Source of the DNA: Escherichia phage 2725-N35
Reading direction: 5' to 3' (one strand)
Sequence record: MN840485.1
DNA: 45,917 nucleotides
Shown in pieces: positions 4,259-31,760 of the stretch. The notes under the pieces were generated by a model. The model ran no database searches, was not told where the DNA came from, and worked only from the letters and a program-made list of their open reading frames with translations. Numbering within the stretch: the first letter of the stretch is position 1; the number at the start of each line of letters is the position of its first letter. The position numbers and the translations under genes are program-made.

Positions 4259-4282
4259 TTTTACAAATGGAGACTCTACACA

Positions 4283-14100: not shown

Positions 14101-14615
14101 TATTCCTGATATGCTCCACCATTAACAGACAGGTCAATTGCGTACTCACAAGTTGTTCCGTTCAGGTCTCCATTGCTTTCTTGCTTAACCAGTCTAGGCC
14201 AATATAGCTTTACACGAATCGCTGATAGCTGAGTATTGTTAACCGCAATGATGTACGGGGTATCGTTCTTGATTTCTCTGGATGCCTGAATCTCTGAGTT
14301 AGCACCGTCAAGCCCGGCGATATAATCCTGATACTGCGTGCCGGCACGGAACTCAGCGCGAACACCTTCGTAGTTGTAGCTACCATCCTGGTTTTGCACC
14401 GGAACGTCGGCAAGGTATAAATCTTTCATTGAGAAATTGGGGTCAACCTCACCATCAGCAACCGCCAAAAGAACCTTAACCTTGTTTAGTGAAATGAGGT
14501 TATCTTCCTGCTCCACTGGTTGATGCTGCTTCTGGCTACCACCTTTAGCACCATAAATCTTAATATCTTCAGCCATATCACAAAGCCTCATGTTTGTTTT
14601 GATCATTTGTGCCAT
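11190..14615 (-). CDS. Tail tip/central fibre protein, lambda gpJ-like (host specificity protein)
   Basis: 1141 aa; conserved gpJ region 'YPLTALVYVEFGSD...IQVPTNYDTETRTYSGTWNGLFK..AWSNNPAWVLYDL'. Confidence 0.9.
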   Translation of the reverse strand: MAQMIKTNMRLCDMAEDIKIYGAKGGSQKQHQPVEQEDNLISLNKVKVLLAVADGEVDPNFSMKDLYLADVPVQNQDGSYNYEGVRAEFRAGTQYQDYIAGLDGANSEIQASREIKNDTPYIIAVNNTQLSAIRVKLYWPRLVKQESNGDLNGTTCEYAIDLSVNGGAYQEYTRGVANGKTTTGYDRSIRVNLPAEFDSALVRIRKITPDSTSSTLVNGMQITTYQEVIDAKFRYPLTALVYVEFGSDLFPNGIPTISIKKRWKLIQVPTNYDTETRTYSGTWNGLFKMAWSNNPAWVLYDLVTNRRYGLDQRELGVEIDKWGLYEAAQFCDQMVPDGKGGLEPRYLCDMVVQNKVEAYTLIRDICSIFRGLTFYDGEKIGIVVDKPRNPSYIFTNDNVVNGLFSRTFASDKSLYTTANVQFDDVENNYQQDVEPVFELEATRRFGFNPVDLTAIGCTRRSEANRRGRWLLKTNLRSETISFTTGLEGMIPMIGEVIAVNDAAWSSNYQLNLSGRIESVQGLQVFTPFKVDAAPGDRILLNKPDGSPEARTIASVSEDGRTINLNTAFSFLAQPDTVFAIDKDNLALQQYVVTGIQKADSDGSDSFQYTITAVEYDPNKYDEIDYGVNIVDRPTSIVEPDRLSPPENLTVSSYSKVVQGLSVETMVIGWDKAPYAKTYNVQWRKENGNWINVPRTASTEVDIEGIYAGIYDVRVRSVSDTENVSAWSGIVTVSLTGKIGRPSAPTVITASTDEVFGIRVKWGFPEGSGDTAYTELQQVPDNGDGTYNPDNASLLTLLPYPAYEYWHTPIQPGKVIWYRARLIDRIGNTSDWSAFARGMSTDDANIINDYIKVDIEGSDGFKYLEQNAIQKNQDIQNQAESILENSLANDADVRRMTKENGKRKAEYVQAVNLIADETQARVEALTQLKAQIDDEVVGQITTIETALATETEARATADTALSARVGNNEAALNQKLDAFSNATSTGVQYGISLGLKYNGQTYSSGMSMELVGTGGNVRSQFIFDANRFAISNGIGSGSGQWQLPFVVENGNVIIQSAVIGDGSITNAKIGNIISSNDYVAGSQGWAILKSGASEFNNTTVRGNLYANNGNFAFNGTNNTVQINNNGITVNLPNGGRVVVGVW

Positions 14616-14623
14616 TCTACACT

Positions 14624-14649
14624 AAATAAAAAACCCGCACTAGGCGGGT
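14624..14649 (-). terminator. Intra-operon hairpin with T-run between the I-like and J-like genes
   Basis: ACCCGC-ctagt-GCGGGT then T6AT3 on the minus strand. Confidence 0.5.
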
Positions 14650-14656
14650 ATGATAT

Positions 14657-15229
14657 TTAAGCAATGTCTTCACTATATGAACCCGCACTAAACACAGAAC
14701 CGCCAACCGTTCGATATCCATACGGAAGACAAACTGGATAACCAGCAGCTACAGTGTTCACAGCCGAGCCAAATGCATATGACGCCCTGTTACTTGTCTG
14801 GTTGCTCTGGTCTTTCAATCCAGTAGCTTGAGGTGATAGCAACTGAGCTACGCCGCCAGCAGCAAGAGAGATACCTGCACCAACAAGGTAGTATTGCTGG
14901 AATACAACACCAACAACGATTAGTGCGGCACCAAGTATTGTCTGAAATAACCCTCCAGACTTACGACCTTGTGGAATTGGCAAGATGCGTATCTCCTGAA
15001 CGGCACTAAAATCAGCAATTCGATGCTCGTTCACATTTTTACCATCCACAAAAATAGCATATCTTGTGTTTTGCCCTACATGGCTATTCATGAACTCTTT
15101 GAAGGATGGAATCTGAGAACAAAGCGCTCGCATTGCTTCTGGCACGCTACTCACTGCCATTTGGTGAACCTTGCCAAACCTCCTACCTAGAGACAGGCCT
15201 AACTTAATATCAATCAGTTTCTGGGTCAT
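14657..15229 (-). CDS. Tail assembly protein, lambda gpI-like
   Basis: 190 aa, position between K-like and J-like genes, hydrophobic G/A-rich segment. Confidence 0.65.
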   Translation of the reverse strand: MTQKLIDIKLGLSLGRRFGKVHQMAVSSVPEAMRALCSQIPSFKEFMNSHVGQNTRYAIFVDGKNVNEHRIADFSAVQEIRILPIPQGRKSGGLFQTILGAALIVVGVVFQQYYLVGAGISLAAGGVAQLLSPQATGLKDQSNQTSNRASYAFGSAVNTVAAGYPVCLPYGYRTVGGSVFSAGSYSEDIA

Positions 15230-15968
15230 AACTTACATCCTCTGGTAAATCCTTATGGCGAACAATTCGCACTGTTCTTTCGCGCCAGTAATCGGAGTAG
15301 ATATCAATGGAACTCATTTTACCATAAAGATGGTGAATGAATCTGTTGTTGCCAATGTAGATTCCTGCGTGGTTTGTCACCTCACTTTGCACCTGCATCA
15401 TAATCATTGAGCCAATAGGAATATCCGAATTTTTTACCAGCTCAAAGCCTTCCTTGATCCAGTTGTCGTCATAGATATTTTCGCTGTACTTCTTCTCCCA
15501 CCATGGGTAATTAACGCGATAGTCATTCAGTTTGACTCCGTATTTCTTGTGGAATGCCATTACCAGCCCCCAGCAATCGAAGCTACCCAACCCCCATGGT
15601 CGACCAATCAGTGGCATGGTTGATGGCTCAAGAATCCGCATGTCTCCCTCCGGGATACTTACGATAACGTAAGGAATCTCGCATTCATTACAGCTGCAAA
15701 TATCCGCAGGACTGGGCCTTGTTGTCGCTCCGTCACCAGTGTGAGAGTGGACTACGTAAACAATAGATTCATTGTGAGCCAATTCAAAGAGAACATCTGC
15801 ATACTCATTTGAGTCAAGCAGGAATTCATTCTCCGGGTCTTTGCTTGCGTTTGTTATCCTGTGATACTTCTGCGCCCTACCCTTCTGCGTGACAACTCCA
15901 CAGCACTCATGCGGGTAAACTTCCTTTGCGTGCTGGAAGATTTCCAGTTTAACTTTTGGTGTTAACAT
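15210..15968 (-). CDS. Tail tip protein, lambda gpK-like (MPN/JAB + NlpC/P60 domains)
   Basis: 'VVHSHTGDG' JAMM-like motif, Cys/His peptidase-like C-terminal half; conserved position. Confidence 0.8.
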   Translation of the reverse strand: MLTPKVKLEIFQHAKEVYPHECCGVVTQKGRAQKYHRITNASKDPENEFLLDSNEYADVLFELAHNESIVYVVHSHTGDGATTRPSPADICSCNECEIPYVIVSIPEGDMRILEPSTMPLIGRPWGLGSFDCWGLVMAFHKKYGVKLNDYRVNYPWWEKKYSENIYDDNWIKEGFELVKNSDIPIGSMIMMQVQSEVTNHAGIYIGNNRFIHHLYGKMSSIDIYSDYWRERTVRIVRHKDLPEDVSYDPETD

Positions 15969-15977
15969 TGTTCCCCC

Positions 15978-16733
15978 TTAGCTCTGATTCGCTTTAGCTT
16001 GAAGGCTTGCTGCTGCGCATCCACCAAATGAAAGCTGGTTATTCTCTCCAAATCTAATCTTACAGCTATTAACTGTTCCGGCGCAGAAATCTAGAGACGG
16101 ATCACTGACCGGGTTGTCGTCTTTGTCAAAATAACGATTGCCAGCGTAGTCGCATCCATTACCGCTGCGATACCAACCCCTAGAAGCCCAATAGCAAACA
16201 GACTGAACAAGTCTTGCGGGGATATAAATACCATCCATATCCATCGGGCTGCTTAGCTCAAACGATGCGGTCTTGTAGTCAACCTGCTTCGGTCGCTCAA
16301 TAAAGTAAACGAATCTGCGATAGTCACCGTCAGCAATGCTTCCATCCTCATTGATGTTATCGCGCGTAGTAATCCAGATTGTAACCTTAGCTTTAACAAG
16401 TCCGTTGTATGTTCGGATTAACGCACTAATACGCTGGTCAACGTTTGATACCGTTAATGTAACCTTATTGGCCTTTCCGTCAGAAGTCATATTTATGCCA
16501 GAGATTCCAAATGGTCTAGGCCCGTACTCTTCACCACGAAATGTGATGGTTTTCTCTGGTAGTGGCTCGCCATTCATTTGAGCCAGCATGATTTCTTCTG
16601 GAGTGTATGAGATGTTCTCATTGTGGAACGAATAAACGAGACCCCCGAAGGACGTGCCGTCAACCTGGATTAGTGTCACAATCTCACCAGGGAAAAGGCT
16701 TTGCAACTGATTTTCAAACTTTGGACTTAACAT
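15978..16733 (-). CDS. Minor tail protein, lambda gpL-like
   Basis: Position and size; C-terminal Cys cluster; start set at ATG with GGAG SD (track uses upstream TTG at 16748). Confidence 0.65.
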   Translation of the reverse strand: MLSPKFENQLQSLFPGEIVTLIQVDGTSFGGLVYSFHNENISYTPEEIMLAQMNGEPLPEKTITFRGEEYGPRPFGISGINMTSDGKANKVTLTVSNVDQRISALIRTYNGLVKAKVTIWITTRDNINEDGSIADGDYRRFVYFIERPKQVDYKTASFELSSPMDMDGIYIPARLVQSVCYWASRGWYRSGNGCDYAGNRYFDKDDNPVSDPSLDFCAGTVNSCKIRFGENNQLSFGGCAAASLQAKANQS

Positions 16734-16750
16734 ATATTTCTCCAACAAAA

Positions 16751-16767
16751 AGCCCCATATAGGGGCT
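16751..16767 (-). terminator. Intra-operon hairpin with T-run between the M-like and L-like genes
   Basis: GCCCC-tatat-GGGGC then TTTTTGTT. Confidence 0.45.
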
Positions 16768-16771
16768 TAGT

Positions 16772-17122
16772 TTAACGCATTGAGCTAAAAACTTCTACGA
16801 ATTGCATGTTTACAGTCTGAACTTCGCTACTAATTGGTGTAACTGAAATGCTATCCTGCTGAATAACAAACATAGAAGTATCACCTTGCGGTGTTTTCCA
16901 GAAGAATGGTGTGATGATGTGATTGAAGCAGAAATCCATAACCTCACGCCAGTCCTTGTTTGTATAGGTCATCTGGTAGCTGCGCTTATTACTGCGGTAG
17001 CCCCCTGTTCCTCTTTGCTCAAAACCATTGCCAAAGCTAACAATACGAACATTGTTTGTATTGGAAAATGCAGCTCCACCATTCTGGATTTGTGTACACC
17101 ATGTAAAATTATCTATTGCCAT
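16772..17122 (-). CDS. Minor tail protein, lambda gpM-like
   Basis: 116 aa, immediately downstream of the tape measure gene. Confidence 0.6.
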   Translation of the reverse strand: MAIDNFTWCTQIQNGGAAFSNTNNVRIVSFGNGFEQRGTGGYRSNKRSYQMTYTNKDWREVMDFCFNHIITPFFWKTPQGDTSMFVIQQDSISVTPISSEVQTVNMQFVEVFSSMR

Positions 17123-17133
17123 AAAAATCCTTA

Positions 17134-17147
17134 GGGGCCGAAGCCCC
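17134..17147 (-). terminator. Intra-operon hairpin between the tape measure and M-like genes
   Basis: GGGGC-ttcg-GCCCC followed by taaggattttt and ATG. Confidence 0.4.
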
Positions 17148-17152
17148 GTTAA

Positions 17153-20134
17153 TTAGTTAAATCCGCGCAGGTACTGATAAGCTCTGCCACCCTGCTGGAA
17201 AGACTGAGAAATCTCTTCAGCTACAATTGCCTTAACGCCATTTTGCAGCGCCTTGGCCTGCTCTGGGTCACTTCCAATTCCACTATTAACGTTAACCGTA
17301 ATTCCACTAACATTAACATCTGTGCCTCCAGAAACCAAGCCACCATTTGCATAGCCAGAGGGACCACCAACGACACCACCGTTTGCGTAACCTTTCATTA
17401 GAGCGTAAAGGTTCTTAACACCGATTCGACTAGTTGCTTCTTTTGTGAATACAAACTCACCACGGTGTACGGTTCCTGCTGGTTGGTATTTCCCTCCATT
17501 ACCAGTATAACCACCGTTAGCGAATCCACCACCAATCGCAGATGCGATAGAGCCAATCGCGCCACCAGTACCACCAAAGCTACTTAAACTAGACTCGATA
17601 GCCTTAACAATAAGAAGCTGAGCCGCAATCTTAGCAATCTGTTTAAGGATGTTAACAGTGAACTCTCTGAAGTTAGTTTCACCAGTTGTTACAAGGTCAG
17701 TAATCTGGTCAGTAATGCCTTCAAATACTGTGGTGGTTAAACTTCCAGCAATTGAGAATGCATCCGTCGCGCTCTCAGCCCAATTAGCAAAGGATTGGTT
17801 CACACCAGCAAGCCAGTTTTCACGTAGCGCATCTTCCTGAGCATAAAAGTTACGTCTTGCCTCGAGAAGCTGCTGAAAATCCACGTCATCAATTGCGCCA
17901 CCAGCATTAACCTGATTGGACTGAAGAGCCTGAATCTCTTTGGCTCTCTGTTGTTCACGAGAAGATAGACCAGCCCCCAAATCAATGTTTTTTGCTTCGT
18001 TGTTAATCTGAAGAATCTTCTTGCGGTTATCTTCAGCTAACTTATTGGCTCGCTCCTGCAAAACAATCTGATCACCCAATTCAGCCTTCTGCCTGGCCAA
18101 CTCAAGAACTTTATCCTTTTCAATTAGAAGTCTTGCTTGCTCTTTGGTAATTGAGCCATCAAGTTGCCTCTGCTCAAGAATCCTGAATTTAGCCTCCTCC
18201 TGAAGATACTGCTTGCGCTCATTGCTTATTACTGCGCCAATATCCCTATTTTCCTGAAGTACCTTGAGTTGGGCCTGAAGCGCTAGAACGCCAGATTCAT
18301 AACCAATTGTTAAATCTATTTGCTCCTTAACCCTACTATTTTCTTCTTTCCTGTTCTTCTTGATCGCATCAAGCTCATCCTGAAGCGCCTTCTTCCTTTT
18401 TGCAAATTCCTCATCAGTACCTGACTGCTCATTGGTATTCTGATTTTCTCTGCGAGTAACGTAACCAAGCTCTCCCTCTCTGATTCTGGCATCTCGCTCC
18501 TTGATAGACTTCTCTAGCTCAAGGTTTTGCTTCTTGGCGGCATCGATAATCTTCTGCTGCCCCTTGATAACATCATCACCAACGCCATCAAGACCAGGAA
18601 TGTTCTGCAATGCCTGAGTTGCGCTAATTACGAATTCACCAATCAGCGCATCACCCTGATTAATGAAGACCCTGATCTGCTCAATTGTTCCGGCGATTAC
18701 GTCAACAAACAGGTTTAGAGCCCCAACCGTTCTACGGCTAATTGCATCCCAGATATCAGAGATGTACTTTCTGAAATCATTCCAGGCTAGCTCAAGCGGA
18801 GTTAACTGCTCTGCTATGTCGTTAAGGTTGGCTTCCTGCGACTTGCTGAAAATGTCAATTGCGGCGGTAACAGCCTCAACCTCTCCCTTTGTCTTCCTAA
18901 GGTTTTCAATTGTCGTCAACTGCCCCTGAGTGAGGAAGTTAAAGCGCTTATCCAAATCAACCAATCCCTGTATTGGGTCGCTAGCAATCTGGTTGTAGTA
19001 ACCAGTAATTTCCTTTGCATCCTTACCTGTCAACTGCGCCCATCTTGCGGTTGATTTAGTAATCTTGTCAATCTGCGTCAGCGTAAGGTTTCCTTGCTCA
19101 ACAAGGCTCGTTGCGATGCTAGTCACAAGTCCCCTAGTGGCTCCTGTTGCATCAGAAACAGAACTAACCAACTCTCTAACCTGCGAGATTGATGCTATTG
19201 TAGAGTTGTTGGAGAACGCAATTGCGGAGTTTAACGCCCTGAATTCACTTTCAGCCTGAGCCGCACCAACACCAAGAGCTACAAGCGCCCCACCCAAAAC
19301 ACCAACAGCAACATTGAATGGATTTAAGGCTGCAAGCGCGAATCTAAATGTGTTGCCAATACCGCCAAAGCTATCCTTAATCTGCCCACCCTGCTGGATT
19401 GCAATAAGCCAAACAGGCATGCCGCTAGCTAATGACGTGGTAATATCAGTTATCTGTGCCGGAAGCATCCTGATAGCATTCCTGTATTGACCGGCACTTA
19501 ATCCTGATCTCAGAAACGCCTTACTTTGGTTTGCTAATTGAACATTAGCCCTCTCTGAAGCCTCTGCGATTCTGTCAATAATAGGTGCTGCCTGAGAGCT
19601 TACGCCAAGCTGAGAAGCCTGTAACTTTAAGTACTCCTCACGCGTCAATGTTGCCGCTTGAGCCTGTCGCTCAAGTGAAGCAATGAATCTATCAGCTTCA
19701 GCCTTTGCCTTTGCCTTATCCTTTGCGGCTTGAGCTGCCGCCCTACCCTCTTCAGTTAGTGCCGCACGTGAACGGGCGAGCTTTGCATTCTGCGTTTCAA
19801 GAGCCTCGCCTAAGCGGAAAAACTCCTCATCAGGAACTACGCCAGCAGCAAATGCCTTATCAAGTCCTACAGCCGCCTCTTGCAGCTTACGGAACTTTGC
19901 CGCAGTTGGATCAATAGCAGTTTGCAATTTAGCTAAAGATGCTTGTTGCTCAGCAAGTGCGTGAGCGGTATCTCTAGCCTGGTTTTTCGCAACCTGCTCA
20001 GCATTGACGAACTCACTAATACCGGAAGCGGCTTGCTGGTTGGCCTGTCTGAACTTCTGTAGGGATTGCGTACCCCTGTCTACCTGAGATACGTCTACGG
20101 CTAGTGTGATTCCGGCTAATTCATTTGTTGCCAT
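17153..20134 (-). CDS. Tail tape measure protein
   Basis: 993 aa, long coiled-coil-rich (A/Q/E/K/L) sequence, located between the chaperones and the tip genes. Confidence 0.85.
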   Translation of the reverse strand: MATNELAGITLAVDVSQVDRGTQSLQKFRQANQQAASGISEFVNAEQVAKNQARDTAHALAEQQASLAKLQTAIDPTAAKFRKLQEAAVGLDKAFAAGVVPDEEFFRLGEALETQNAKLARSRAALTEEGRAAAQAAKDKAKAKAEADRFIASLERQAQAATLTREEYLKLQASQLGVSSQAAPIIDRIAEASERANVQLANQSKAFLRSGLSAGQYRNAIRMLPAQITDITTSLASGMPVWLIAIQQGGQIKDSFGGIGNTFRFALAALNPFNVAVGVLGGALVALGVGAAQAESEFRALNSAIAFSNNSTIASISQVRELVSSVSDATGATRGLVTSIATSLVEQGNLTLTQIDKITKSTARWAQLTGKDAKEITGYYNQIASDPIQGLVDLDKRFNFLTQGQLTTIENLRKTKGEVEAVTAAIDIFSKSQEANLNDIAEQLTPLELAWNDFRKYISDIWDAISRRTVGALNLFVDVIAGTIEQIRVFINQGDALIGEFVISATQALQNIPGLDGVGDDVIKGQQKIIDAAKKQNLELEKSIKERDARIREGELGYVTRRENQNTNEQSGTDEEFAKRKKALQDELDAIKKNRKEENSRVKEQIDLTIGYESGVLALQAQLKVLQENRDIGAVISNERKQYLQEEAKFRILEQRQLDGSITKEQARLLIEKDKVLELARQKAELGDQIVLQERANKLAEDNRKKILQINNEAKNIDLGAGLSSREQQRAKEIQALQSNQVNAGGAIDDVDFQQLLEARRNFYAQEDALRENWLAGVNQSFANWAESATDAFSIAGSLTTTVFEGITDQITDLVTTGETNFREFTVNILKQIAKIAAQLLIVKAIESSLSSFGGTGGAIGSIASAIGGGFANGGYTGNGGKYQPAGTVHRGEFVFTKEATSRIGVKNLYALMKGYANGGVVGGPSGYANGGLVSGGTDVNVSGITVNVNSGIGSDPEQAKALQNGVKAIVAEEISQSFQQGGRAYQYLRGFN

Positions 20135-20154
20135 CTAAGCCTCCATAATAGAAA

Positions 20155-20180
20155 ACCCGCCGAAGCGGGTTATTTTTTTC
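20155..20180. terminator. Hairpin between the chaperone and tape measure genes, with a strong T-run on the plus (antisense) strand
   Basis: ACCCGC-cgaa-GCGGGT followed by TATTTTTTT on the plus strand. Confidence 0.45.
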
Positions 20181-20481
20181 TCAGGTTATCCATCATCTCA
20201 AGAGCCTTAGCTTCAAGGATGCGTAAATCGCTGAGCACCAATTCTTCTTCAGAGACATTATACACTCTAAAGAGGAAATTTAGCACGTTGTAATCCATCC
20301 CTGTAGCTCCGTTAGCTCCGACTCTCCACTGCGTAGCCATTGAACAATAAATGTCCCACGCTTTCATCATGTTTTCGTCGAAGTTTAAAACTTCAGGCTC
20401 TTCGTCTTCGTAATCAGAGCGGCGCATCCCAATAGCTTCCAGTTCGGCATCAGTTGGCTCTGACTGGTACTGTAGATACAC
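20170..20481 (-). CDS. Tail assembly chaperone, downstream (gpT-like) frame
   Basis: Overlaps the upstream chaperone ORF by 32 nt; no ATG at its 5' end (track starts at GTG), consistent with expression as a frameshift fusion. Confidence 0.55.
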   Translation of the reverse strand: MYLQYQSEPTDAELEAIGMRRSDYEDEEPEVLNFDENMMKAWDIYCSMATQWRVGANGATGMDYNVLNFLFRVYNVSEEELVLSDLRILEAKALEMMDNLRKK

Positions 20482-20803
20482 CGCTCGTTTTAGTTTTTAC
20501 TCGCTGACCAGCAAGTGCTTGCATATAAGCCGTGGTCAGTGCAACGGTTGAAGCTGGGAACAGGTCGGAGAACTCATTAACGTTATCCTCGTTGTATTCC
20601 TCTTCCAAATCCCAATCAGAAGCAATTGCCATAATAAGCTCTTTGGTGCTCAAGTCTTCCTTGTTAAGCAATTCCTGAAGTTCAGAAGTCTTCTTGTGCT
20701 TAACTGTAAAAATAACCTCTACATCCTGGTCGTTAGCCAGCTTGAATTTTACTGGTAGCTTGAAGTCTGGCAGTGCCGCCAGTGAAAGTTTGAACTTTGC
20801 CAT
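20450..20803 (-). CDS. Tail assembly chaperone (gpG-like)
   Basis: 117 aa acidic protein directly upstream of the tape measure gene, downstream of the major tail gene. Confidence 0.65.
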   Translation of the reverse strand: MAKFKLSLAALPDFKLPVKFKLANDQDVEVIFTVKHKKTSELQELLNKEDLSTKELIMAIASDWDLEEEYNEDNVNEFSDLFPASTVALTTAYMQALAGQRVKTKTSGVSTVPVRAN

Positions 20804-20842
20804 TTTTGTTAATCCTCTTATTGTTTGTGAGTATGTATTCTA

Positions 20843-21091
20843 TTACTTAGTGTTTTCTTTTGCAATATTAGCAGCCGAGTCCTTGCAGACCTCTTTGCCA
20901 TATTTCATGATTTGGTCAACTTTACCACCTACAAGTTCCTGGCATGCTCGCTCAGCTTTAGCGAACTCAACAGTATATTTGTTTGCCTTGATATTTGCAT
21001 CAGCCTCACCAGTTGGGTTAACAATCTGAACCACTGCATAAAAAGCAACCAGAACTGCAGCAAGCTTGATGATGTTTTTAACGTTATTCAT
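20843..21091 (-). CDS. Moron: small secreted or membrane-anchored protein
   Basis: 82 aa; N-terminal hydrophobic segment IIKLAAVLVAFYAVVQIV; own P-box promoter and an upstream terminator; inserted between the major tail and chaperone genes. Confidence 0.6.
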   Translation of the reverse strand: MNNVKNIIKLAAVLVAFYAVVQIVNPTGEADANIKANKYTVEFAKAERACQELVGGKVDQIMKYGKEVCKDSAANIAKENTK

Positions 21092-21109
21092 TTCTTTAAT
21101 CTCTCATTT

Positions 21110-21170
21110 CGTTTCGATGAGTTAACTATACAGGAAGATTGGATTAACGCTTTAGCAAAAAGTGCTATGC
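21110..21170 (-). promoter_or_regulatory. P-box promoter for the moron gene
   Basis: ATAGCACTTTTTGCTAAAG, 22 nt, TATAGTTAACTCATCGAAACGAAATGAG. Confidence 0.6.
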
Positions 21171-21175
21171 AATAA

Positions 21176-21201
21176 AAAACCCTCCGAAGAGGGTTTGTGT
21201 T
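21176..21201 (-). terminator. Terminator after the major tail protein gene
   Basis: ACCCTC-ttcg-GAGGGT then T6. Confidence 0.75.
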
Positions 21202-21858
21202 TTAAACTTCCGCTGCAACTGAGGACAGCCGACCATGAATGGATACAGCGATGGATACCGTTTCGATTTCGTTTACGCCGATAGTTGGCGTGTCGTTGAA
21301 AGCGATAGTGCCGGACTGCAAGCGCATTTCACTGGCGCGAGGAACAAACAGACGAATCGCAACAACCTGTCCTGACTCATCATAGTTACGCAGAACCGGA
21401 TAGACCGGGTTGGTGTACTCGTGAGCGAAGGTGAAGGTGTTCGTTACCGCAGACTTATAAGTAGGAATCTGCTGTTCACGGTCACTAGAAAGACACTGGA
21501 AGTTAACGAATTGCTGTTCGCCACCATCAGTAGATACATCCTGAACACAAGGAACTTCGAACCATGAAGTGATCTTAACAACTTCACCAGTTAAACCGGC
21601 CGGGAACTTGGTGGTGCTGGAGGTGTCAATACCTTCAACAGTTACTGACGTATCAGTGATTGCAGTCACTCGAACTTGCTTGTAAGCCAGAAGCGTTGAA
21701 GCAGAAGAGGTGAAAAGCAGGTAATCACCAACGACCAAACCAGAAGCGTTAGATACAGTTAAAACAGGGGTAACTGCGTTAGAAATTGCAGTTACGTCAA
21801 TCGCATCACCGCGAGAGCCTTCTACGAACACCTGAGTGCCGTTTGATAAATGAGCCAT
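21202..21858 (-). CDS. Major tail protein
   Basis: 218 aa, position (lambda gpV equivalent), followed by a strong terminator. Confidence 0.7.
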   Translation of the reverse strand: MAHLSNGTQVFVEGSRGDAIDVTAISNAVTPVLTVSNASGLVVGDYLLFTSSASTLLAYKQVRVTAITDTSVTVEGIDTSSTTKFPAGLTGEVVKITSWFEVPCVQDVSTDGGEQQFVNFQCLSSDREQQIPTYKSAVTNTFTFAHEYTNPVYPVLRNYDESGQVVAIRLFVPRASEMRLQSGTIAFNDTPTIGVNEIETVSIAVSIHGRLSSVAAEV

Positions 21859-21873
21859 GTATTTTTCCTTTTG

Positions 21874-22275
21874 TTAGTCTAGACGAACATAAAAACGAAC
21901 CGGGATAAACCACCCAGATTTGGATTTGATAACCGGGTTAACAATTCCAGACTCATAAATGGTCCCGCTGTCAAGCATTGTACCATCAACGATAGATTCT
22001 GCCAATTGATTAGCGATTTGTCTCGGCTTATCAATACCAGTACCAGGGCTGAAGAAAACAGAAATTTGCACCATTCCAACGTAGTATTTGCACTTCCTGC
22101 TTAGCCCGTAGGTTACAGTGTCAACCTCTGTGTAGTCGTACTTAAGCCAGATTGAGCCGTCAGCAGGGGGAGTAAATGCAGTATTCTCCCACGCAACTGG
22201 ATACCTGACTGGAAATTCATTTACCAACAAATCGTTGACGAATTTCCTTGCTGCTAATGATAATTTATATTGCAC
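21874..22275 (-). CDS. Tail terminator protein (gpU-like), putative
   Basis: 133 aa directly upstream of the major tail gene. Confidence 0.45.
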   Translation of the reverse strand: MQYKLSLAARKFVNDLLVNEFPVRYPVAWENTAFTPPADGSIWLKYDYTEVDTVTYGLSRKCKYYVGMVQISVFFSPGTGIDKPRQIANQLAESIVDGTMLDSGTIYESGIVNPVIKSKSGWFIPVRFYVRLD

Positions 22276-22702
22276 GACGAGCCTCCTCTACAGCTTCCTG
22301 GAAATACCTGCCAAGCCTCGCTTGCACCACGCCCAAAACACCAGACGGAGCCTGATTTGAAGCTCCATACTCAAGGTTGGCTGCGTAATCAAGTCGGTTA
22401 GTAATATAAATAACACTAGTGGCTTTTGAATTGGCTACTGCTCTGGCTTGTCTGGCGAGATATGTTTTTGTCTGCCCGCCAGTCTGATCGTACTCATTCA
22501 GAGACTGCTGGGCTGGTGAGTTTGCGGTAATTTGCCAGTTAGCCTTGAATCTACCAGTGTCGACAGGGGAAAGGTCCACAATTGCGTTGGCTGTCTTGGT
22601 AACCGTGTTGGCGACTACAATTTCAAATCCCTTATCTGCTCTGTTAATCCAGTCAGCAATAGATTTCTCAAAAGTAGCAACGCTTCCAATATTTCTAGCC
22701 AT
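22265..22702 (-). CDS. Tail completion/neck protein, putative
   Basis: Start trimmed to ATG (MARNIG...) with GGTGG SD; position in the connector module. Confidence 0.4.
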   Translation of the reverse strand: MARNIGSVATFEKSIADWINRADKGFEIVVANTVTKTANAIVDLSPVDTGRFKANWQITANSPAQQSLNEYDQTGGQTKTYLARQARAVANSKATSVIYITNRLDYAANLEYGASNQAPSGVLGVVQARLGRYFQEAVEEARRAI

Positions 22703-23066
22703 AAGTAGCCACCCTACGAAGAATCGGTCTGTAACCAACCACTGTACCAGTTGGTTTAACTGGTCGCGGATCAACAACAACAAAAGTCTCGCCATCAACT
22801 TTAATCTGATAACCCTGCTTAATTTCCGCCTGTGCTGTGAAGATTCCGCGCTTATCGCCAAACTGGATAAACTCGCCATCAATATCTCGCGTCTTGATTT
22901 CTCGCACTAAGCCTTTTAGCTGGAATGTTTGCGCTGGCACTTCTACTTCAACGCCATTGACGATTTTAACATATCCAGCACCAGTGCTCATCTCGTAGAC
23001 GCCATTGGCATCACTAAAGAAGTTAATTCCAGCGCGAGTGATTGATTCAATTTCGTTGTAGTTCAT
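22695..23066 (-). CDS. Head-tail adaptor protein, putative
   Basis: Position; ATGA overlap with the upstream gene. Confidence 0.35.
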   Translation of the reverse strand: MNYNEIESITRAGINFFSDANGVYEMSTGAGYVKIVNGVEVEVPAQTFQLKGLVREIKTRDIDGEFIQFGDKRGIFTAQAEIKQGYQIKVDGETFVVVDPRPVKPTGTVVGYRPILRRVATYG

Positions 23067-23464
23067 CGGCAACCGCACCCACCGCCACGAGCGGAAGTAA
23101 TCAGTCCAAAGCCGCCACCTTTCTTGCGGAGAAGTGATTTGTACATACGGCCCCAGGAGGAAGATGATAAATCACCTTGGATTGCTGATTGGTTATCATA
23201 GGTGATAGAGAATTCACCGCTAAGTGCATAACTTGCCATTCTACGGCTGTATGTCTCAAGGCCTTCATTCTCACCCTTAAAAGCGCCATCAGAAAGCATC
23301 AGGTGTAATGCATAAAGGCCCACAGCGCGATCTGCATCATTACCAAGCTTACTCTCACATACGTAGAGACGTGCCAAATCGATCCACACATTAATTGATT
23401 CGTCATCCACTGCCTTGAGCGCAGGAACAAGTGAGCGCATAAACGCCAAAATTGCATCATTCAT
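23063..23464 (-). CDS. Head-tail connector (gp6-like), putative
   Basis: Position downstream of the capsid gene; start set at ATG with GGAG SD (track starts at TTG). Confidence 0.35.
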   Translation of the reverse strand: MNDAILAFMRSLVPALKAVDDESINVWIDLARLYVCESKLGNDADRAVGLYALHLMLSDGAFKGENEGLETYSRRMASYALSGEFSITYDNQSAIQGDLSSSSWGRMYKSLLRKKGGGFGLITSARGGGCGCR

Positions 23465-23505
23465 ATTAACTCCATACAATAAAGGACGCCGAAGCGCCCT
23501 GTTTG

Positions 23506-23751
23506 TTATTTGTACTCGTTGCCAGTCTCAGCTTCGGAGATGGTTTTCGGTTCTTTGCGCTTTTTCTTGCTAACAATTTCTTGCGCGATCTGTTTGGTTG
23601 TTTTTGCGTCACCCTCAATGGTTAGCTTACCCTCTGCAATTAAACGCTTGAGTCCGTCGCAAATTACATCAACCTCGAAAGTGTCACCAGGCAGATATTT
23701 CTCACCCTTATAAACGATAAGGCAAGCGCCAGTGTGTTCTAAACGAATCAT
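23506..23751 (-). CDS. Hypothetical small structural-module protein
   Basis: 81 aa ORF between the capsid and connector genes. Confidence 0.4.
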   Translation of the reverse strand: MIRLEHTGACLIVYKGEKYLPGDTFEVDVICDGLKRLIAEGKLTIEGDAKTTKQIAQEIVSKKKRKEPKTISEAETGNEYK

Positions 23752-23812
23752 TTTTGTCTCCTTTGTTTATCTGATTGAGTGATTATAACTCAACAAATCC
23801 ATTTGGTACAGA

Positions 23813-23843
23813 CGTAAAAAAGCCCTACGAAGAGGGCCATTTA
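23813..23843 (-). terminator. Terminator after the major capsid gene
   Basis: GCCCTC-ttcg-(T)AGGGC then T6. Confidence 0.7.
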
Positions 23844-24785
23844 TTACTCGTAGGTAATGCCTTTCATTACTGCCATCGTCAGAGGACGATATAAAATCAA
23901 ACCTGTAGCCTTAGAGGTTACGGGGTACTTAAAGTGCAAGTCCTTAGGTTGACCAGGAAGCACATTGGTAGCCTCTGGAATCTCGATAGACATATTGAGC
24001 GGGTTCTTCTCAAATGCCAGGGCAGCCTTACCACCTGCGCCATCGTAGTTATCCAGGAACTGAAGATAACGCAGATTGATACCAGAGTTGTTGGTAGCGA
24101 ACAGCTGAGCGTAACTGATAGAGGTGTTAGGAACCAGCTCTTGCATCAGGCGGCGAGCGGAAGCAGGTAGCAAGATATCAGTTGCGGTGTGAGTTCCATT
24201 AGTCGAAGTCTCGATTGCATCAATAAGTGCGGTAATATCAGTCATGGCGGCAGCTGCGGAGTTCCACGTACCAGCAACAACGTTGTTTATGTTCGGGTGG
24301 TCGAATACGCTAGGAATGCCGTGCGGAGCAGAGCCAGACCAAACCAGTTTGTCCAGCAGGTTATCGTGCGCTTCGAAAGCCAGTGCTTGCTTGCGAGTTG
24401 ACAGAGACTGACCAGTTGCGGCGCCTGCTTTAATTTCATCGGTAGAAATCAGGAATGCGTTACCGAAACGGAACACTTTACCTTGTTTCTCGGTCATGAA
24501 AGCGTCAACCAGCGGCAAGTCGTCAGAGTAATCAGCGATAATCTGAGCGATACCAACACCATCAAATTCTGGGTATTCGAAATATTTCGCATGACCAGGG
24601 ATTTCATTGGTCACAGGGAAGATATTAACAACGGAGTTGTCTGCATATTCTTTTTCGTAAGCTCGTGCCAGATTGGCGGTCAGTTGCTTAACAGTCCAGA
24701 TACCAGCGGCATCTGCTTTCTCTACGCCCATTTGCTCGAGGTGAGCGGTGATTTTTGCTTGTTCTGCATCAAATTTAATGGCCAT
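23844..24785 (-). CDS. Major capsid protein, putative
   Basis: 313 aa; position between the head morphogenesis and connector genes; flanked by a terminator. Confidence 0.55.
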   Translation of the reverse strand: MAIKFDAEQAKITAHLEQMGVEKADAAGIWTVKQLTANLARAYEKEYADNSVVNIFPVTNEIPGHAKYFEYPEFDGVGIAQIIADYSDDLPLVDAFMTEKQGKVFRFGNAFLISTDEIKAGAATGQSLSTRKQALAFEAHDNLLDKLVWSGSAPHGIPSVFDHPNINNVVAGTWNSAAAAMTDITALIDAIETSTNGTHTATDILLPASARRLMQELVPNTSISYAQLFATNNSGINLRYLQFLDNYDGAGGKAALAFEKNPLNMSIEIPEATNVLPGQPKDLHFKYPVTSKATGLILYRPLTMAVMKGITYE

Positions 24786-24877
24786 TCTTTATTGTTCCTT
24801 TTCAGTTAGGTGTCTACGAGCTTATTATACAGTAGGGCGACCGCAAATCAATAGATAAGTTAGCTGCCCATAATGTG

Positions 24878-25567
24878 TTAGCTCGCGATAATCTTAGCTA
24901 CTCGAAGCTGCGCCAGGAGGTCGTTTACTTTAGTGACTACTGCGTTAACTGCCGCAGTAGCCGAGGTGGCAACTGCTTCCGCGTCAGCACCTGTCACAGT
25001 CTGACTCACAACGTTAGCGACAGCCGCGCCAGCAACAAACTTGTTTCCAGGCATGGCGTTTTTCGCTCCAGCACCGATCTGGATAACGCCAGCCTCAGTG
25101 GTGCTTGCGGCAGGAAGGCTGGCTACAGGAACGACACCACCAATGTTAGCCAGCGTCTTATTTCCAGCCATAGCTTGGTTTGCGCCAGTGCCAACAATCG
25201 GTGCAAAAGTGGCTGGTTTTCCGGTCACGTCACCCCAAGCTACTGAAACAGATCCGCCCGAACTTCCTTTATATGCATAAGCAAATAGCTGACCAGCATC
25301 AAGACTCAGGCTTGATGTATCAATGGTGAATCCGTCATCAGATGCTTCCTCGATAGCGTCGAACAACTTACGCATACTTGTGGAAGTGATCACCTTAGCT
25401 TCAGTGATTGAGCTATCAGCGCCCTTAGCAACAACGATGGAATATGACTGTGAGCCATTTACCGTGATTTTACTTACTGGCTGAAAGCCTGCCGTGATTG
25501 CCGCTTGCAGCAGTGTATTGAATCGACCGCTATCTGCACTGATAGCCTTAACTTCTGTGTAAGCCAT
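24878..25567 (-). CDS. Head-module structural protein (possible decoration/fibre-like protein)
   Basis: 229 aa; A/G/V-rich C-terminal half with 'WGDVTGKPATFAP' motif; role uncertain. Confidence 0.3.
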   Translation of the reverse strand: MAYTEVKAISADSGRFNTLLQAAITAGFQPVSKITVNGSQSYSIVVAKGADSSITEAKVITSTSMRKLFDAIEEASDDGFTIDTSSLSLDAGQLFAYAYKGSSGGSVSVAWGDVTGKPATFAPIVGTGANQAMAGNKTLANIGGVVPVASLPAASTTEAGVIQIGAGAKNAMPGNKFVAGAAVANVVSQTVTGADAEAVATSATAAVNAVVTKVNDLLAQLRVAKIIAS

Positions 25568-25624
25568 GATTTATCTCCTTTTCTAAGTGAGAATTGAATA
25601 TAACATAGGCGTAATTTGATTACA

Positions 25625-25660
25625 AAAAAACCTCCCGAAGGAGGCTTTATATATCTTAAT
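25625..25660 (-). terminator. Terminator-like hairpin after the 25663..26184 gene
   Basis: CCTCC-ttcg-GGAGG then T7. Confidence 0.6.
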
Positions 25661-25662
25661 TA

Positions 25663-26184
25663 TTAAACAGCGACAGTTGAGTCTGCTGATTGAATCAACT
25701 GAACCTCAACCATTGCACCATCAACGCTTTCACCTTGCTTAATTGGGTCAGCGCCGCCAGCGTAAGCCGACACATAGCCACCAGCAAATGTAAAACCAGT
25801 TTCCCAGGTAGTGGTAGCAGCCTCAGCAGCAACAACGCCACTCGCGTTTACGTAAACCTTACTACCAAAAACTGGCGCAGCCGCTAGAGTTGTACGAACC
25901 CAGATTCGACCGTGTGTCATCACGTTAACCGCTTCATTTACGCGAGCGGTGCCATCTGGAGTCTCATAATGAGATTTAACAACAACACCGTAAGGTTTAA
26001 CTGGTGTGCCAGTCACAGCAGGAAGCCCAACAACTTTGTGACCATCTACAGGCTGAGCGGATGTAACGCCAACAAAAGTGCCAACCGGAATGGCTGCTGC
26101 GCCGCCAACTACGCAAGCGCCGTCGATGTTGTACAGAGAAGTATCAGAAACCATACCAGCCAGTGCTACGGAACGAATTGCCAT
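25663..26184 (-). CDS. Head-module protein (possible decoration or scaffold-like)
   Basis: 173 aa, G/A/V-rich; position only. Confidence 0.3.
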   Translation of the reverse strand: MAIRSVALAGMVSDTSLYNIDGACVVGGAAAIPVGTFVGVTSAQPVDGHKVVGLPAVTGTPVKPYGVVVKSHYETPDGTARVNEAVNVMTHGRIWVRTTLAAAPVFGSKVYVNASGVVAAEAATTTWETGFTFAGGYVSAYAGGADPIKQGESVDGAMVEVQLIQSADSTVAV

Positions 26185-26196
26185 GTTTATAACTCC

Positions 26197-27291
26197 TTAT
26201 TTCTTAATTTTAGCTAAACGAGCACGTGGGTCTAATTTCTTAGGCTCATCGGCGCTGTCAGATTTGTCGGAAGCAGTAGTTGCTTTACGTACTTCAGCCA
26301 TTTTATCAGATTCTTTGGCAATGTCGAATGCCGCGTCGATGTATGCGTCAGACTTCTCACTAACATCAAGACCGGAGACTTCTTTAACGTAAGCAACTTT
26401 AATGCCTTTAGCATCCAGACCGTCAGCCTTAACACCAGCCTCAGCAGCAACAGCAACCAGAGCGGCTAGGGCATCAGCATCAGCTTTCGCTTTAGCAACG
26501 GCAGCTTCGATTTCAGCTGGCATTGCATCTACTTTAGCTTTCAGAGAATCGCGCTCTGCGATTGCAGTGTCAGCCTTTGCGTTCAGTGCTTCGATGTGAG
26601 AAGCGATTTCCGGGGCAACTTCAAATTCCTGTGCTCCGTCGAGTTTAATCTTAATCATTTTCTGTTTATCCTCTTTATTGATATCAACGTCAGTAGTATA
26701 CGGGTTTTCCTGTTGAGCGTCAAAATTTAACTTTGCCACCTGAGCTCTTCCTTTGTATACCAGTGCGACATGGTTTACTTTAATTTCAGTCTGCAGCGCA
26801 TCGAATCTAACCCAGTCAGAAGGAATTTCATCCTGTGATTGATACTCACCGTCTAGCTTGTACTCACCAGTTTCGTTACTACCCCAGCCTTTAGACTCAA
26901 CGTCAACAGTTGAGTACCCTACGGATAGCTCACCAGCAATGCCATTTTTTGCCTTCTCGATTGATTCCTTGTCATAAATAGTTAGTGGAACAATAACATT
27001 TGAATCTTCACGCATTGCTGAGCCAGATACCGCCCCTACAACGACCTCTTTAGCATTCTCTGAGTTAACAAAAACATGACCTAAGGTAATTGGCTTACCC
27101 TGATAACTAGCCAGAGAATCATGCTTAAATACCTCTGAGGCTGGTCTAAATTCTCTGCGTTCTTTGCCATCTGGAAGGTAGTAGGTTTGCACCCCGACGC
27201 GTGCAACAATCGGGGTATCAACCAGAAAGCCGTTTTCATCAAATCTAGCTTTCACCTTCGCGCTGTCATAGCGCAATTTCTTCATTAACAA
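26197..27291 (-). CDS. Head morphogenesis protein (possible prohead protease/scaffold fusion)
   Basis: 364 aa directly downstream of portal; C-terminal A/K/E-rich coiled-coil-like region. Confidence 0.45.
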   Translation of the reverse strand: MLMKKLRYDSAKVKARFDENGFLVDTPIVARVGVQTYYLPDGKERREFRPASEVFKHDSLASYQGKPITLGHVFVNSENAKEVVVGAVSGSAMREDSNVIVPLTIYDKESIEKAKNGIAGELSVGYSTVDVESKGWGSNETGEYKLDGEYQSQDEIPSDWVRFDALQTEIKVNHVALVYKGRAQVAKLNFDAQQENPYTTDVDINKEDKQKMIKIKLDGAQEFEVAPEIASHIEALNAKADTAIAERDSLKAKVDAMPAEIEAAVAKAKADADALAALVAVAAEAGVKADGLDAKGIKVAYVKEVSGLDVSEKSDAYIDAAFDIAKESDKMAEVRKATTASDKSDSADEPKKLDPRARLAKIKK

Positions 27292-28534
27292 CCTCCGTCT
27301 CTGTGATTAATTCCGATTCCTCGGCCTGGATATCGCCATCACCAATCTTAATTTCTGGTGCGATAGTGCGTAGTGTATCACGGGCTTCGTTAGTATCCAT
27401 AGCGCCAGATGCAATTAGCGTCGCGATGCTGCTTACGTTCTTCTCAAGAATCTCAGCCTTATCCTTGCTTGACTCCTGAGCTAAGGGATAAAACTCAACT
27501 GACCACTCTTCTACATTTACGATGAACGGGATTAAGAACCCAAGAATAGGAAGCAACTCAGAGTTACGTTTGCGGTCAACTAGCTTATGGAATGTCTCAA
27601 GGGCTGTATTCTGGCTTGATGACACACCACCAACGTTCTTGTTTTTCAGGATGATTTCATGGATACCGCTCAGGGCAACGATTCTATCGAACTTCTTATC
27701 CAGGAACGCATCGATCCCGCCAATATCGGAGTTGAGAATGCTGTATTCTTCAGATTCCGCATCGATACCAATCGCCTGGCCTACGCCGCTATTGTTGTCA
27801 ACCTGTGCAAGTCTCAATCGAGCTGCACCAAATCCTTCGCTATCATCACATAACTCAGCCAGACCTTTCGCCTTCCACACCGCCTGCTGCTTGCGCTTCA
27901 GTAACTGCGTAGCAAGTCGTTCACAGTTGGTGTAATCCTTAATTGAGTCAAGAATGTCACTGGATAGAACGCTACGGCCCCAGCCATCATTTTGCCGACG
28001 CATTACGTTAGGAATTCGCTCACCATCTATGATATGAATGCGGCTATAATGCACATCGTAGAACATATCGCTTTCGTTTGTGGTGATGCGATAGGTTAGG
28101 GGATTACCAAAACGTGCGTTGCGTGGATTCTCCTCTCGAGTTTGTACTTTCACCTGCGTGCGGTCGTAAACACGAACGGTTTCAAGTTCTGCGCCTTCTC
28201 TTACCGGGCTTGTTAGAGATCTATTGTCTTTGACGATAGCCACAATAGCAGAACCGCCGAACAATCTAGCCCACGACCAGGCTTCGTTGATGTGCTTTGT
28301 CAGCTCCAGGTAGTCCCAACGAGACCAAAATGCTGGCTCATCATCAATACCATCAATGTGGAATCCTGCCGCTAATGCTGTCTCAGGGATTGTGTCGATA
28401 ATTCTACGTACCAGCGCATTATTCGCATAAAGAGAAGCCAGGATTGTAGGCTCCTGATTCTGTAAGCTCCCGTAAATCTCACTACCATCACTGCCGCCGA
28501 GAAAGATATTGGCGTAGCTGTCTGTCTTTACCAT
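27266..28534 (-). CDS. Portal protein
   Basis: Size and position downstream of terminase; start trimmed to ATG (MVKTD...) after the upstream hairpin. Confidence 0.7.
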   Translation of the reverse strand: MVKTDSYANIFLGGSDGSEIYGSLQNQEPTILASLYANNALVRRIIDTIPETALAAGFHIDGIDDEPAFWSRWDYLELTKHINEAWSWARLFGGSAIVAIVKDNRSLTSPVREGAELETVRVYDRTQVKVQTREENPRNARFGNPLTYRITTNESDMFYDVHYSRIHIIDGERIPNVMRRQNDGWGRSVLSSDILDSIKDYTNCERLATQLLKRKQQAVWKAKGLAELCDDSEGFGAARLRLAQVDNNSGVGQAIGIDAESEEYSILNSDIGGIDAFLDKKFDRIVALSGIHEIILKNKNVGGVSSSQNTALETFHKLVDRKRNSELLPILGFLIPFIVNVEEWSVEFYPLAQESSKDKAEILEKNVSSIATLIASGAMDTNEARDTLRTIAPEIKIGDGDIQAEESELITETEVVNEEIAL

Positions 28535-28551
28535 TGCATTTCTCCAATAAA

Positions 28552-28575
28552 AAAGCCCCATGTGGGGGCTAGTTT
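28552..28575 (-). terminator. Hairpin with T-run upstream of portal
   Basis: GCCCCC-acat-GGGGC then T5. Confidence 0.5.
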
Positions 28576-28591
28576 ATCACACGGTTTTTGA

Positions 28592-28966
28592 TTACTCGAA
28601 TTTTACTTCGAACTTGATTGATGATGTATCAACCCCACTAGATTCAAAGTCCTTGACGCATAATAGCGTATCGTCGAACTTTACCTTAGTAACCACTTCG
28701 CCATTGATGTAATATCTAAACTCGGGTTTTTTATCGGCGCTAGGATGCATGGATGCGCACTCAGTTTCAGTTACAAAATGATCCTCATTGATTAGTTTAA
28801 ACTTGTAGAACGTTCCGTTTTTAATACAACGTTCAGTATCATTATCATCGCAAAGACCAATAAATCCATCACCAAGATCGTAAAAATCGTACTCTCTTCC
28901 CGGCGTGAATTCACAACACTCGTCATAAGTGTTTCCAAGATATAAAGCCTTTGATTTGTTTTTCAT
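28592..28966 (-). CDS. Moron: Cys-rich small protein between TerL and portal
   Basis: 124 aa with several Cys; own P-box promoter upstream, hairpin downstream. Confidence 0.55.
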   Translation of the reverse strand: MKNKSKALYLGNTYDECCEFTPGREYDFYDLGDGFIGLCDDNDTERCIKNGTFYKFKLINEDHFVTETECASMHPSADKKPEFRYYINGEVVTKVKFDDTLLCVKDFESSGVDTSSIKFEVKFE

Positions 28967-28989
28967 TTGCCTTTTCTCCTCTTGTTTGT

Positions 28990-29045
28990 GTGAAGTAACT
29001 ATACGCCATCCGTGGCTCTAGCGTTTAGCAATTCGTGCTATTTAA
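28990..29045 (-). promoter_or_regulatory. P-box promoter for the 28592..28966 moron
   Basis: AAATAGCACGAATTGCTAAAC, 22 nt, TATAGTTACTTCACACAAAC; the TerL stop codon (TAG) lies within the motif. Confidence 0.6.
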
Positions 29046-31114: not shown

Positions 31115-31182
31115 ATCGCCACCTCGTTAGTTTGTTGGGCCCATTATCTCATTGATTGGGCCTCTTCTTTTAACAATAATTG

Positions 31183-31699: not shown

Positions 31700-31730
31700 T
31701 TTGTTGAGGTCAGATTATACCATATTGCAG
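31700..31730 (-). promoter_or_regulatory. sigma70-like extended -10 promoter (TGgTATAAT) for the packaging/late operon
   Basis: Minus reading: tgcaataTGGTATAATctgacctcaacAAAGGAGGattaaATG. Confidence 0.55.
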
Positions 31731-31732
31731 AC

Positions 31733-31760
31733 GAAAAAAAGCCCTCAAGCGAGGGCTAAA
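31733..31760 (-). terminator. Rho-independent terminator ending the tRNA/small-gene transcript
   Basis: AGCCCTCGCTTGAGGGCT then T7 on the minus strand. Confidence 0.75.

Follow-up and report, generated by a model that had tools for sequence, protein, structure and literature searches.

Predicted Rho-independent terminators at the late gene junctions of T1-like phage 2725-N35 and their conservation in the Drexlerviridae

The late operon of lambda is transcribed by the host polymerase from one promoter with the help of the processive antiterminator Q, T7 has a partial terminator, T-phi, after its major capsid gene 10, and filamentous phages have a terminator after gene VIII. For T1, the late region has been described as a series of 'transcriptons', modules that are bounded by terminators and contain RpoD promoters (PMC11447400, citing Roberts et al., 2004), while 21 intergenic terminators have been reported for phage TLS (PMC11447400) and 18-21 per genome for the four T1-like phages of the AHP24 group (PMC4070988). 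The terminator annotations and counts for T1-like phages are software predictions throughout, in records and papers alike. The present analysis concerns Escherichia phage 2725-N35 (sequence record MN840485.1), the whole 45,917 nucleotides (nt) of which are referred to here as the window, and the GC-rich hairpins followed by T-runs that an earlier note on this DNA had described between its late genes at 14620-28590.

Annotated relatives identify the window as a T1-like coliphage (Drexlerviridae, Braunvirinae). A megablast search of 14000-29000 against phage records (134 matches) returned Veterinaerplatzvirus T145P1 as the closest relative at ~94% identity, followed by Rtp-, ACG-M12- and BASEL-type phages at 86-90%. 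The late genes are encoded by the minus strand, where they begin with the small terminase gene (31689), end with the gene for a J-like tip protein (11190) and follow the order of T1 and Rtp. The finding of terminator hairpins in this region is correct but ordinary, as orthologous terminators have been annotated in T1 since 2004: in RefSeq record NC_005833, 'rho-independent transcriptional termination site' features mark the nine corresponding syntenic junctions, namely before the portal gene and after gp49, the capsid gene gp47, gp46, the major tail gene gp41, the chaperone gene gp39, M (gp37), I (gp34) and J (gp33). Terminators are predicted in a like manner in TLS, the AHP24 group and Citrobacter phage Sazh, the record of the last having them at the same junctions; the present window has ~15 strong ones. 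As in the T1 transcriptons, matches to host-type promoters lie between the late-region terminators. Unlike in T1, where the stem sequences are unrelated to those found here, 2725-N35 has an extra hairpin without a U-tract between the tape measure gene and M, which abut in T1, and a phage-specific repeat promoter instead of a simple -10 box after the major tail terminator, and it has lost the M/L promoter that T1 possesses.

Anatomy and conservation of the hairpins

Every junction between consecutive late genes was extracted and scanned for a hairpin with a T-run. All nine sites named in the earlier note were present on the minus (coding) strand, with stems of 5-9 pairs (4-5 of them GC) and loops of 4-6 nt. 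Eight of the nine show the canonical anatomy of a GC-rich stem of 6-9 bp, a short loop and a T-run directly after the stem, in which T makes up at least 5-6 of the first 8-9 nt; the T-run claimed after each hairpin was missing from its place at tape measure/M, where TAAGGA comes first and TTTTT follows. The UUCG tetraloop was indeed common and occurs as cUUCGg in five of the nine hairpins (25648, 23500, 21196, 20171 and 17147), while a sixth loop, CUUCGU at 23838, departs by one base from the UUCG loop of the relatives, in which the post-capsid stem reads GCCCUC-UUCG-GAGGGC. Folding energies, the calculation of which had been proposed as a check, came to -9.0 to -13.4 kcal/mol for the nine listed sites, with z-scores of -1.9 to -4.2 against shuffles, and the range widened to -9.0 to -13.9 kcal/mol with the hairpin after J included. 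All of these hairpins are intergenic, oriented with the coding strand, and placed -2 to 21 nt past a stop codon.

A strict scan (at least 6 pairs, at least 4 GC pairs and at least 5 T in 8) of the coding strand at 14620-28590 returned 9 sites, one of which was intragenic (22368-22345), against 0.95 ± 1.07 in 200 dinucleotide-preserving shuffles, and a looser scan returned 27 sites against 15.8 ± 3.5 expected. The shuffle test rules out chance or base composition as the origin of the hairpins. The statement that nearly every junction contains one holds for spacers of at least 20 nt (9/13) and fails for the late junctions as a whole (10/23), most of the hairpin-less ones being junctions of overlapping or abutting genes. 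Similar hairpins were found outside 14620-28590, before the small terminase gene (31757-31740) and after J (11184-11163) as well as in the early regions (4194-4211, 6824-6843, 40741-40758 and 41918-41901), and four stem sequences (GCCCC, CCCGC, CCTCC and CCCTC) recur around the genome. An Rfam search of the whole window at the gathering threshold returned a transfer RNA (tRNA) only and no family for the hairpins. Bidirectional termination against antisense transcription was rejected as their main role, a good plus-strand T-run being present at the chaperone site only.

Conservation was assessed in the late regions of 16 relatives, comprising 14 Drexlerviridae from at least five subfamily-level lineages, which with the present phage make 15 genomes, and two more distant siphoviruses as outgroups. 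[quoted passage not shown] Downstream of the cement, capsid, gp46-like, major tail, chaperone, M, I and J genes, nearly all of the 15 Drexlerviridae genomes have a hairpin with a T-run, and most of these hairpins are absent from the two outgroups. The post-capsid blanks of T1, K50evo20 and JohannLBurckhardt are artefacts of tblastn-based capsid gene ends that overshoot the stop codon; T1 has an annotated terminator after its capsid gene. The major tail terminator was found in 17/17 genomes compared, with unrelated stem sequences: AAACCCUC/GAGGGUUU in 2725-N35, GGGGGC/CCCCC in T1, AGCCCC/GGGGCU in Rogue1 and GGCGGGGC/GCCUCGCC in AttikonH6. MAFFT and RNAalifold gave no family-wide consensus structure for the major tail junction, which was judged by per-genome hairpin detection, and covariation tests were kept for three alignable junctions. 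The major tail stems have been replaced, rather than mutated, across the family.

At the three alignable junctions, RNAalifold reported compensatory changes in 4/7 pairs for chaperone/tape measure, 3/7 for I/J and 4/7 for M/L. The earlier note had made conservation in relatives a test of its claim, and the hairpins are kept there, both in position and through these compensatory changes. Together, conserved position, turnover of stems, compensatory changes and the adjacent U-tract indicate selection on RNA structure. By every sequence criterion the hairpins classify as intrinsic terminators, that between tape measure and M excepted. Coordinates, sequences and energies are collected in Table 1.

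Table 1. Putative terminators, promoter-like sites and repeat motifs of the late region and its surroundings, in the order of late transcription (window positions; energies in kcal/mol).
Feature	Coordinates	Strand	Sequence	Energy	Context
Putative terminator before small terminase gene	31757-31740	-	hairpin + T-run		followed by -10 TATAAT (31719-31714)
Small terminase junction	31714..31757	-	-35-like TTGAGG		in hairpin loop and 3' arm
Repeat promoter motif	31169..31186	-			before HNH endonuclease gene 30602..31114
Repeat promoter motif	29024..29041	-	palindrome TAGCA-N5-TGCTA		before gene 28592..28966
Putative terminator before portal	28554..28570	-	AGCCCC-CACAT-GGGGCT + TTTTTT	-11.4	then GGAG and start codon; stem begins 21 nt past stop of gene 28592..28966
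Promoter-like, cement gene	26300..26327	-	TCGACA-16-TGnTAAAAT		inside protease gene, 115 nt before gene
Putative terminator after cement gene 25663..26184	25627..25648	-	AAAGCCTCC-UUCG-GGAGGUUUU + UUU	-13.3	z -4.2
Sigma-70-like promoter	25597..25625	-	TTGTAA-17-TGtTATATT		directly after cement terminator; consensus match only
Promoter-like, major capsid	24824..24851	-	TTGATT-16-TATAAT		38 nt before gene
Putative terminator after major capsid gene	23821..23838	-	GGCCCU-CUUCGU-AGGGCU + UUUUUU	-9.0	T1 counterpart 16107-16137
Terminator-like hairpin after gene 23506..23751	23483..23500	-	AGGGCGC-UUCG-GCGUCCU	-12.2	interrupted U-tract UUAUUGU, then GGAG and next gene's start; T1 counterpart 16445-16470
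Promoter-like, major tail	21977..22005	-	TTGGCA-17-TGnTACAAT		inside tail-terminator gene, 118 nt before gene
Putative terminator after major tail gene	21177..21196	-	AAACCCUC-UUCG-GAGGGUUU + UUU	-11.5	
Repeat promoter motif	21125..21168	-	ATAGCACTTTTTGCTAAA, 20 nt, TATAGT		directly after major tail terminator, before gene 20843..21091
Putative terminator chaperone/tape measure	20154..20171	-	AACCCGC-UUCG-GCGGGUU + UUCUAUU	-11.8	stop codon within stem; GGAGG and start codon downstream
Hairpin tape measure/M	17134..17147	-	GGGGC-UUCG-GCCCC	-11.0	z -1.9; no adjoining U-tract, UAAGGA (M ribosome-binding site) directly 3'
Putative terminator M/L	16750..16768	-	AAGCCCC-UAUAU-GGGGCUU + UUUGUU	-13.4	then GGAG and start codon
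Putative terminator I/J	14633..14649	-	ACCCGC-CUAGU-GCGGGU + UUUUU	-9.7	
-10-like box	14614..14619	-	TAGAAT		13 nt after I/J terminator
Putative terminator after J	11163..11184	-	AAAGCCCC-UUAAUU-GGGGCUUU	-13.9	end of late block; bidirectional shape, faces convergent gene
Repeat copies, examples	208-225, 4242-4259, 21151-21168, 29024-29041, 34002-34019, 45142-45159	-			
Repeat copy, example	37849-37866	+			

Promoter-like sites, probable partial termination and a proposed role of the ribosome

The hairpins are probably Rho-independent terminators that divide the late region into short, partly overlapping transcription units. The picture of a single late operon, from which the earlier note had started, is contradicted by several conserved promoter-like sites and three phage-specific promoter motifs within the region. 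Promoters were sought as matches to the sigma-70 consensus in the 220 nt upstream of orthologous genes. A promoter-like site of the form TTGnnn-16-TAnnAT was present before the capsid gene at -38 to -53 in 15/15 Drexlerviridae genomes, and extended -10 sites were present in 14/15 genomes each before the major tail gene (at -113 to -118) and before the cement gene (at -114 to -190). The cement, capsid and major tail genes each lie between such a conserved promoter-like site and a terminator. Nearly all Drexlerviridae genomes with the I/J terminator also carry, 9-13 nt past its T-run, a TA(T/G/C)AAT box whose alignment columns are invariant.

Four sites, those after the cement, capsid and major tail genes and after I, are followed by a promoter-like element. 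Elsewhere the essential genes downstream have no promoter of their own, and termination at these predicted sites must therefore be partial; they number five or six and lie before portal, the connector genes, tape measure and L-K-I, and possibly M and J. Several hairpins stand directly upstream of the next ribosome-binding site, as the earlier note had observed, which was found before portal, the connector genes, tape measure and L. Among the three roles that it had offered, partial termination setting transcript dosage fits best, both from the way promoters and terminators flank genes and from the sites next to ribosome-binding sites.

Distances from stop codon to stem were 21, 14, 5, 5, 5, -2, 5, 3, 7 and 5 nt, so that 8/10 hairpins begin -2 to 7 nt past the stop codon, and the distances are similar across the family. 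At the lambda terminator tR2 in E. coli, shifting the stop codon to a distance of 5 bp lowered termination efficiency from ~0.9 to <0.1, and removing translation restored termination (PMC4824070). The phage hairpins resemble the arrangement of Li et al. (2016; PMC4824070) in lying a few nt past a stop codon, and differ in that the ribosome effect was demonstrated there in a reporter assay of a single lambda terminator. By this analogy I infer that a ribosome completing the gene upstream gates the phage terminators; that termination takes place, how efficient it is, what the ribosome contributes and how all this bears on protein stoichiometry are likewise inferred.

The mechanism proposed would run as follows. 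Host RNA polymerase would read the hairpins as ordinary Rho-independent terminators, and most transcripts started at the promoters of the cement, capsid and major tail genes, whose products would be the three virion proteins in greatest demand, would stop at the terminator just past the gene. A minority of polymerases would read on into the low-copy genes for connector, chaperones, tape measure and tail-tip proteins, the likely source of this leak being hairpin position, with a ribosome that ends the upstream gene blocking the folding of the hairpin. Terminated transcripts would carry a very stable 3' hairpin, often with cUUCGg, which may slow 3' exonucleases. Such a layout would be like those of T7 T-phi and of the gene VIII terminator of filamentous phages in that a leaky terminator directly after the most abundant structural gene lowers the transcription of low-copy genes downstream; T7 differs in having a polymerase of its own and just one site of this kind, while 2725-N35 would use the host polymerase at about ten sites, several with restart promoters.

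Several points weigh against this model. Weaker U-tracts were expected at the sites of read-through and were seen at 23500 and not in general, so that the sequence of the hairpin alone cannot account for a graded leak. The short distances between stop codon and stem could reflect mere compaction of the genome, and the tape measure/M hairpin, having no U-tract, is a misfit to a terminator model. The promoter calls are consensus matches whose sole support is positional conservation. Finally, the literature searched yielded neither mapped RNA 3' ends nor a transcriptome for any T1-like or Drexlerviridae phage, and the one RNA-sequencing paper that names Drexlerviridae had sequenced a T5-like phage.

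Alternative roles

Efficient terminators might instead be overridden by a phage protein or RNA, in the manner of lambda Q or N or of the HK022 put RNA. The phage shares with lambda a long head-and-tail gene block in the same order that is transcribed by host polymerase, and strong-looking sites (6-7 U, -11 to -13 kcal/mol and an upstream A-tract) do precede essential genes without promoters. Candidates for such a factor would be at hand among more than 30 small early proteins in PHROG families of unknown function, or in the common transcribed leader CATCGAAAC of ~20 phage-specific promoters; yet just three promoters with the conserved leader lie in the late region, all before accessory genes. 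The dependence on antitermination considered in the earlier note found no backing in the proteins scanned, as neither a Q- nor an N-type nor any other antiterminator family was matched among 40 proteins compared with PHROGs and 10 compared with Pfam, and the only regulator in these scans was the Cro-like helix-turn-helix protein of 2734..3213. Unlike lambda, the phage also has many internal promoters, and conserved promoters before the abundant genes would be superfluous for a single antiterminated transcript, and hairpins 0-7 nt from a stop codon should leak even in the absence of such a factor. I consider antitermination quite unlikely.

A role mainly in RNA stability, with the hairpins acting as exonuclease barriers after processing or as 3' caps rather than as polymerase stops, would suit the extra-stable cUUCGg tetraloops at five sites and, above all, the hairpin between tape measure and M. 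This hairpin is limited to Braunvirinae and Rogue1, in which it is identical despite 56% identity of the tape measure proteins, and in JeanPiccard and ECH1 an HNH gene with a repeat promoter takes its place. It is not a canonical terminator, and protection of messenger RNA 3' ends is its only obvious role, and a plausible one. At eight other junctions, however, a U-tract is conserved after the stem across the family while the stems themselves turn over, and termination requires a U-tract, which an exonuclease barrier does not. T7-type RNase III sites, with ~20 bp or more of double-stranded RNA and usually an internal loop, were ruled out, the longest stem having 9 bp and stems of 5-9 bp being too short. 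What remains of the RNA-stabilising processing once suggested is 3'-end protection as a plausible side effect of termination, and stability as the main role appears unlikely. A reading of the hairpins as DNA-level features, that is, boundaries of mobile cassettes or hot spots of recombination or homing that are palindromic by accident, could draw on the variable or inserted genes that adjoin them, such as 24878..25567, which has no homolog in the 16 relatives, on HNH endonuclease genes at the tape measure/M, capsid/gp46 and L/K junctions of relatives, and on the stem sequences shared around the genome. It is hard to reconcile with the strong strand asymmetry, the T-run being always downstream on the coding strand, with pairing preserved through G-U and compensatory changes, which matter in RNA only, and with the presence of hairpins at junctions without variation in gene content, and it seems most improbable. 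Partial termination at leaky Rho-independent sites remains the favoured reading.

Neighbouring features and a possible stop-and-restart layout

The phage-specific promoter motif mentioned above is the repeat ATAGCACnnnTTGnTAAA, which has ~21 copies in the window (23 matches) against 6.3 expected and includes the palindrome TAGCA-N5-TGCTA. Intergenic copies all point with transcription, and in the aligned copies a TATAgT box lies 19-20 nt downstream and is followed by the conserved leader TTAcCnCATCGAAAC. The same repeat is described in the TLS paper, where its function is given as unknown (PMC11447400). As the usual -35/-10 spacing is exceeded and the centre of the palindrome lies near -42, the motif looks like a phage-specific, activator-dependent promoter. 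The three late-region copies stand before accessory genes, namely the HNH gene, 28592..28966 and 20843..21091. At several of the repeat promoters (33493, 34997, 31186 and 225/45159), the spacer upstream of the -10 box pairs with a conserved TTACC just after it; for instance, the copy that begins at 33493 has GGGGTAA-N10-TTACCCC. The upstream arm of such an inverted repeat would precede the start of transcription, so that any role would be at the level of DNA.

The slot between the cement terminator and the capsid promoter holds gene 24878-25567 (-) in 2725-N35 and different genes in other Drexlerviridae. Its 229-residue product is a virion structural protein (phrog_1954), and tblastn returned zero matches to it in the 16 relatives, the 94%-identical ones included; the sigma-70-like promoter at 25597..25625 would drive this gene. 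The upstream cement/decoration gene 25663..26184 was identified by a Pfam Phage_cement match. The small and large terminase genes flank an HNH endonuclease gene, 30602-31114 (-) (Pfam HNH_3), which has a repeat promoter upstream; the called large terminase open reading frame overlaps the HNH gene by 89 nt, so that the true start of the large terminase is probably further downstream. The first-ATG start calls of portal and J are probably too long as well. The ATG called for portal at 28561 falls in the terminator loop and a better start lies at ~28534 (region 28534-28561, -), and that called for J at 14615 falls inside the -10-like TAGAAT, with a better start at ~14575 (region 14573-14615, -); both of the better starts carry GGAG or GAGG ribosome-binding sites. 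A tRNA gene was found at 32003-32077 (-) with an Rfam score of 56 bits, and relatives annotate a tRNA-Arg at the same position. No exact repeat of the ends of the window was found, but 1-983 and 44935-45917 match at 99.6% over 985 bases, with a few mismatches. This match points to terminal redundancy or to an assembly extending beyond the end of the genome.

At some junctions, promoter-like elements were found inside the terminator hairpins themselves. At I/J in T1, K50evo20, Sazh, JohannLBurckhardt and LF82-40, the hairpin loop and 3' arm contain a -35-like TTGCGC or TTGCGG, separated by 17 nt from the -10 box downstream, and M/L outside the Braunvirinae has the same layout, with a -35-like TTG(C/T)GC in the terminator hairpin. 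At the small terminase junction of 2725-N35, the partner of the corresponding TTGAGG is a weaker -10, TATGGT, at a spacing of 18 nt, and not the TATAAT 5 nt further on (31719-31714). With -35-like elements inside the hairpins, terminator and promoter would share DNA at these junctions, an arrangement to which the term 'transcriptons' of the T1 authors may refer. I would tentatively extend this to a possible scheme for the Drexlerviridae, in which hairpins double as promoter parts, the T-run serving as the spacer of a compact stop-and-restart module, and, together with the ribosome-gated leak, set virion stoichiometry without an antiterminator. As a separate part of the same tentative scheme, the ~20 TAGCA-N5-TGCTA/TATAGT motifs might be activator-dependent promoters, perhaps under a single Cro-like regulator.

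As a discovery the hairpins carry little weight, terminators being routinely predicted in T1-like genomes. What the comparison adds is that these predictions are under selection across the whole phage family, as seen in position, stem turnover and compensatory changes. The layout that emerges, of putative promoter-gene-terminator cassettes for three abundant virion proteins with stop-codon-proximal and probably leaky terminators elsewhere, may be relevant to the engineering of T1-like therapeutic phages and of compact parts for expression control.

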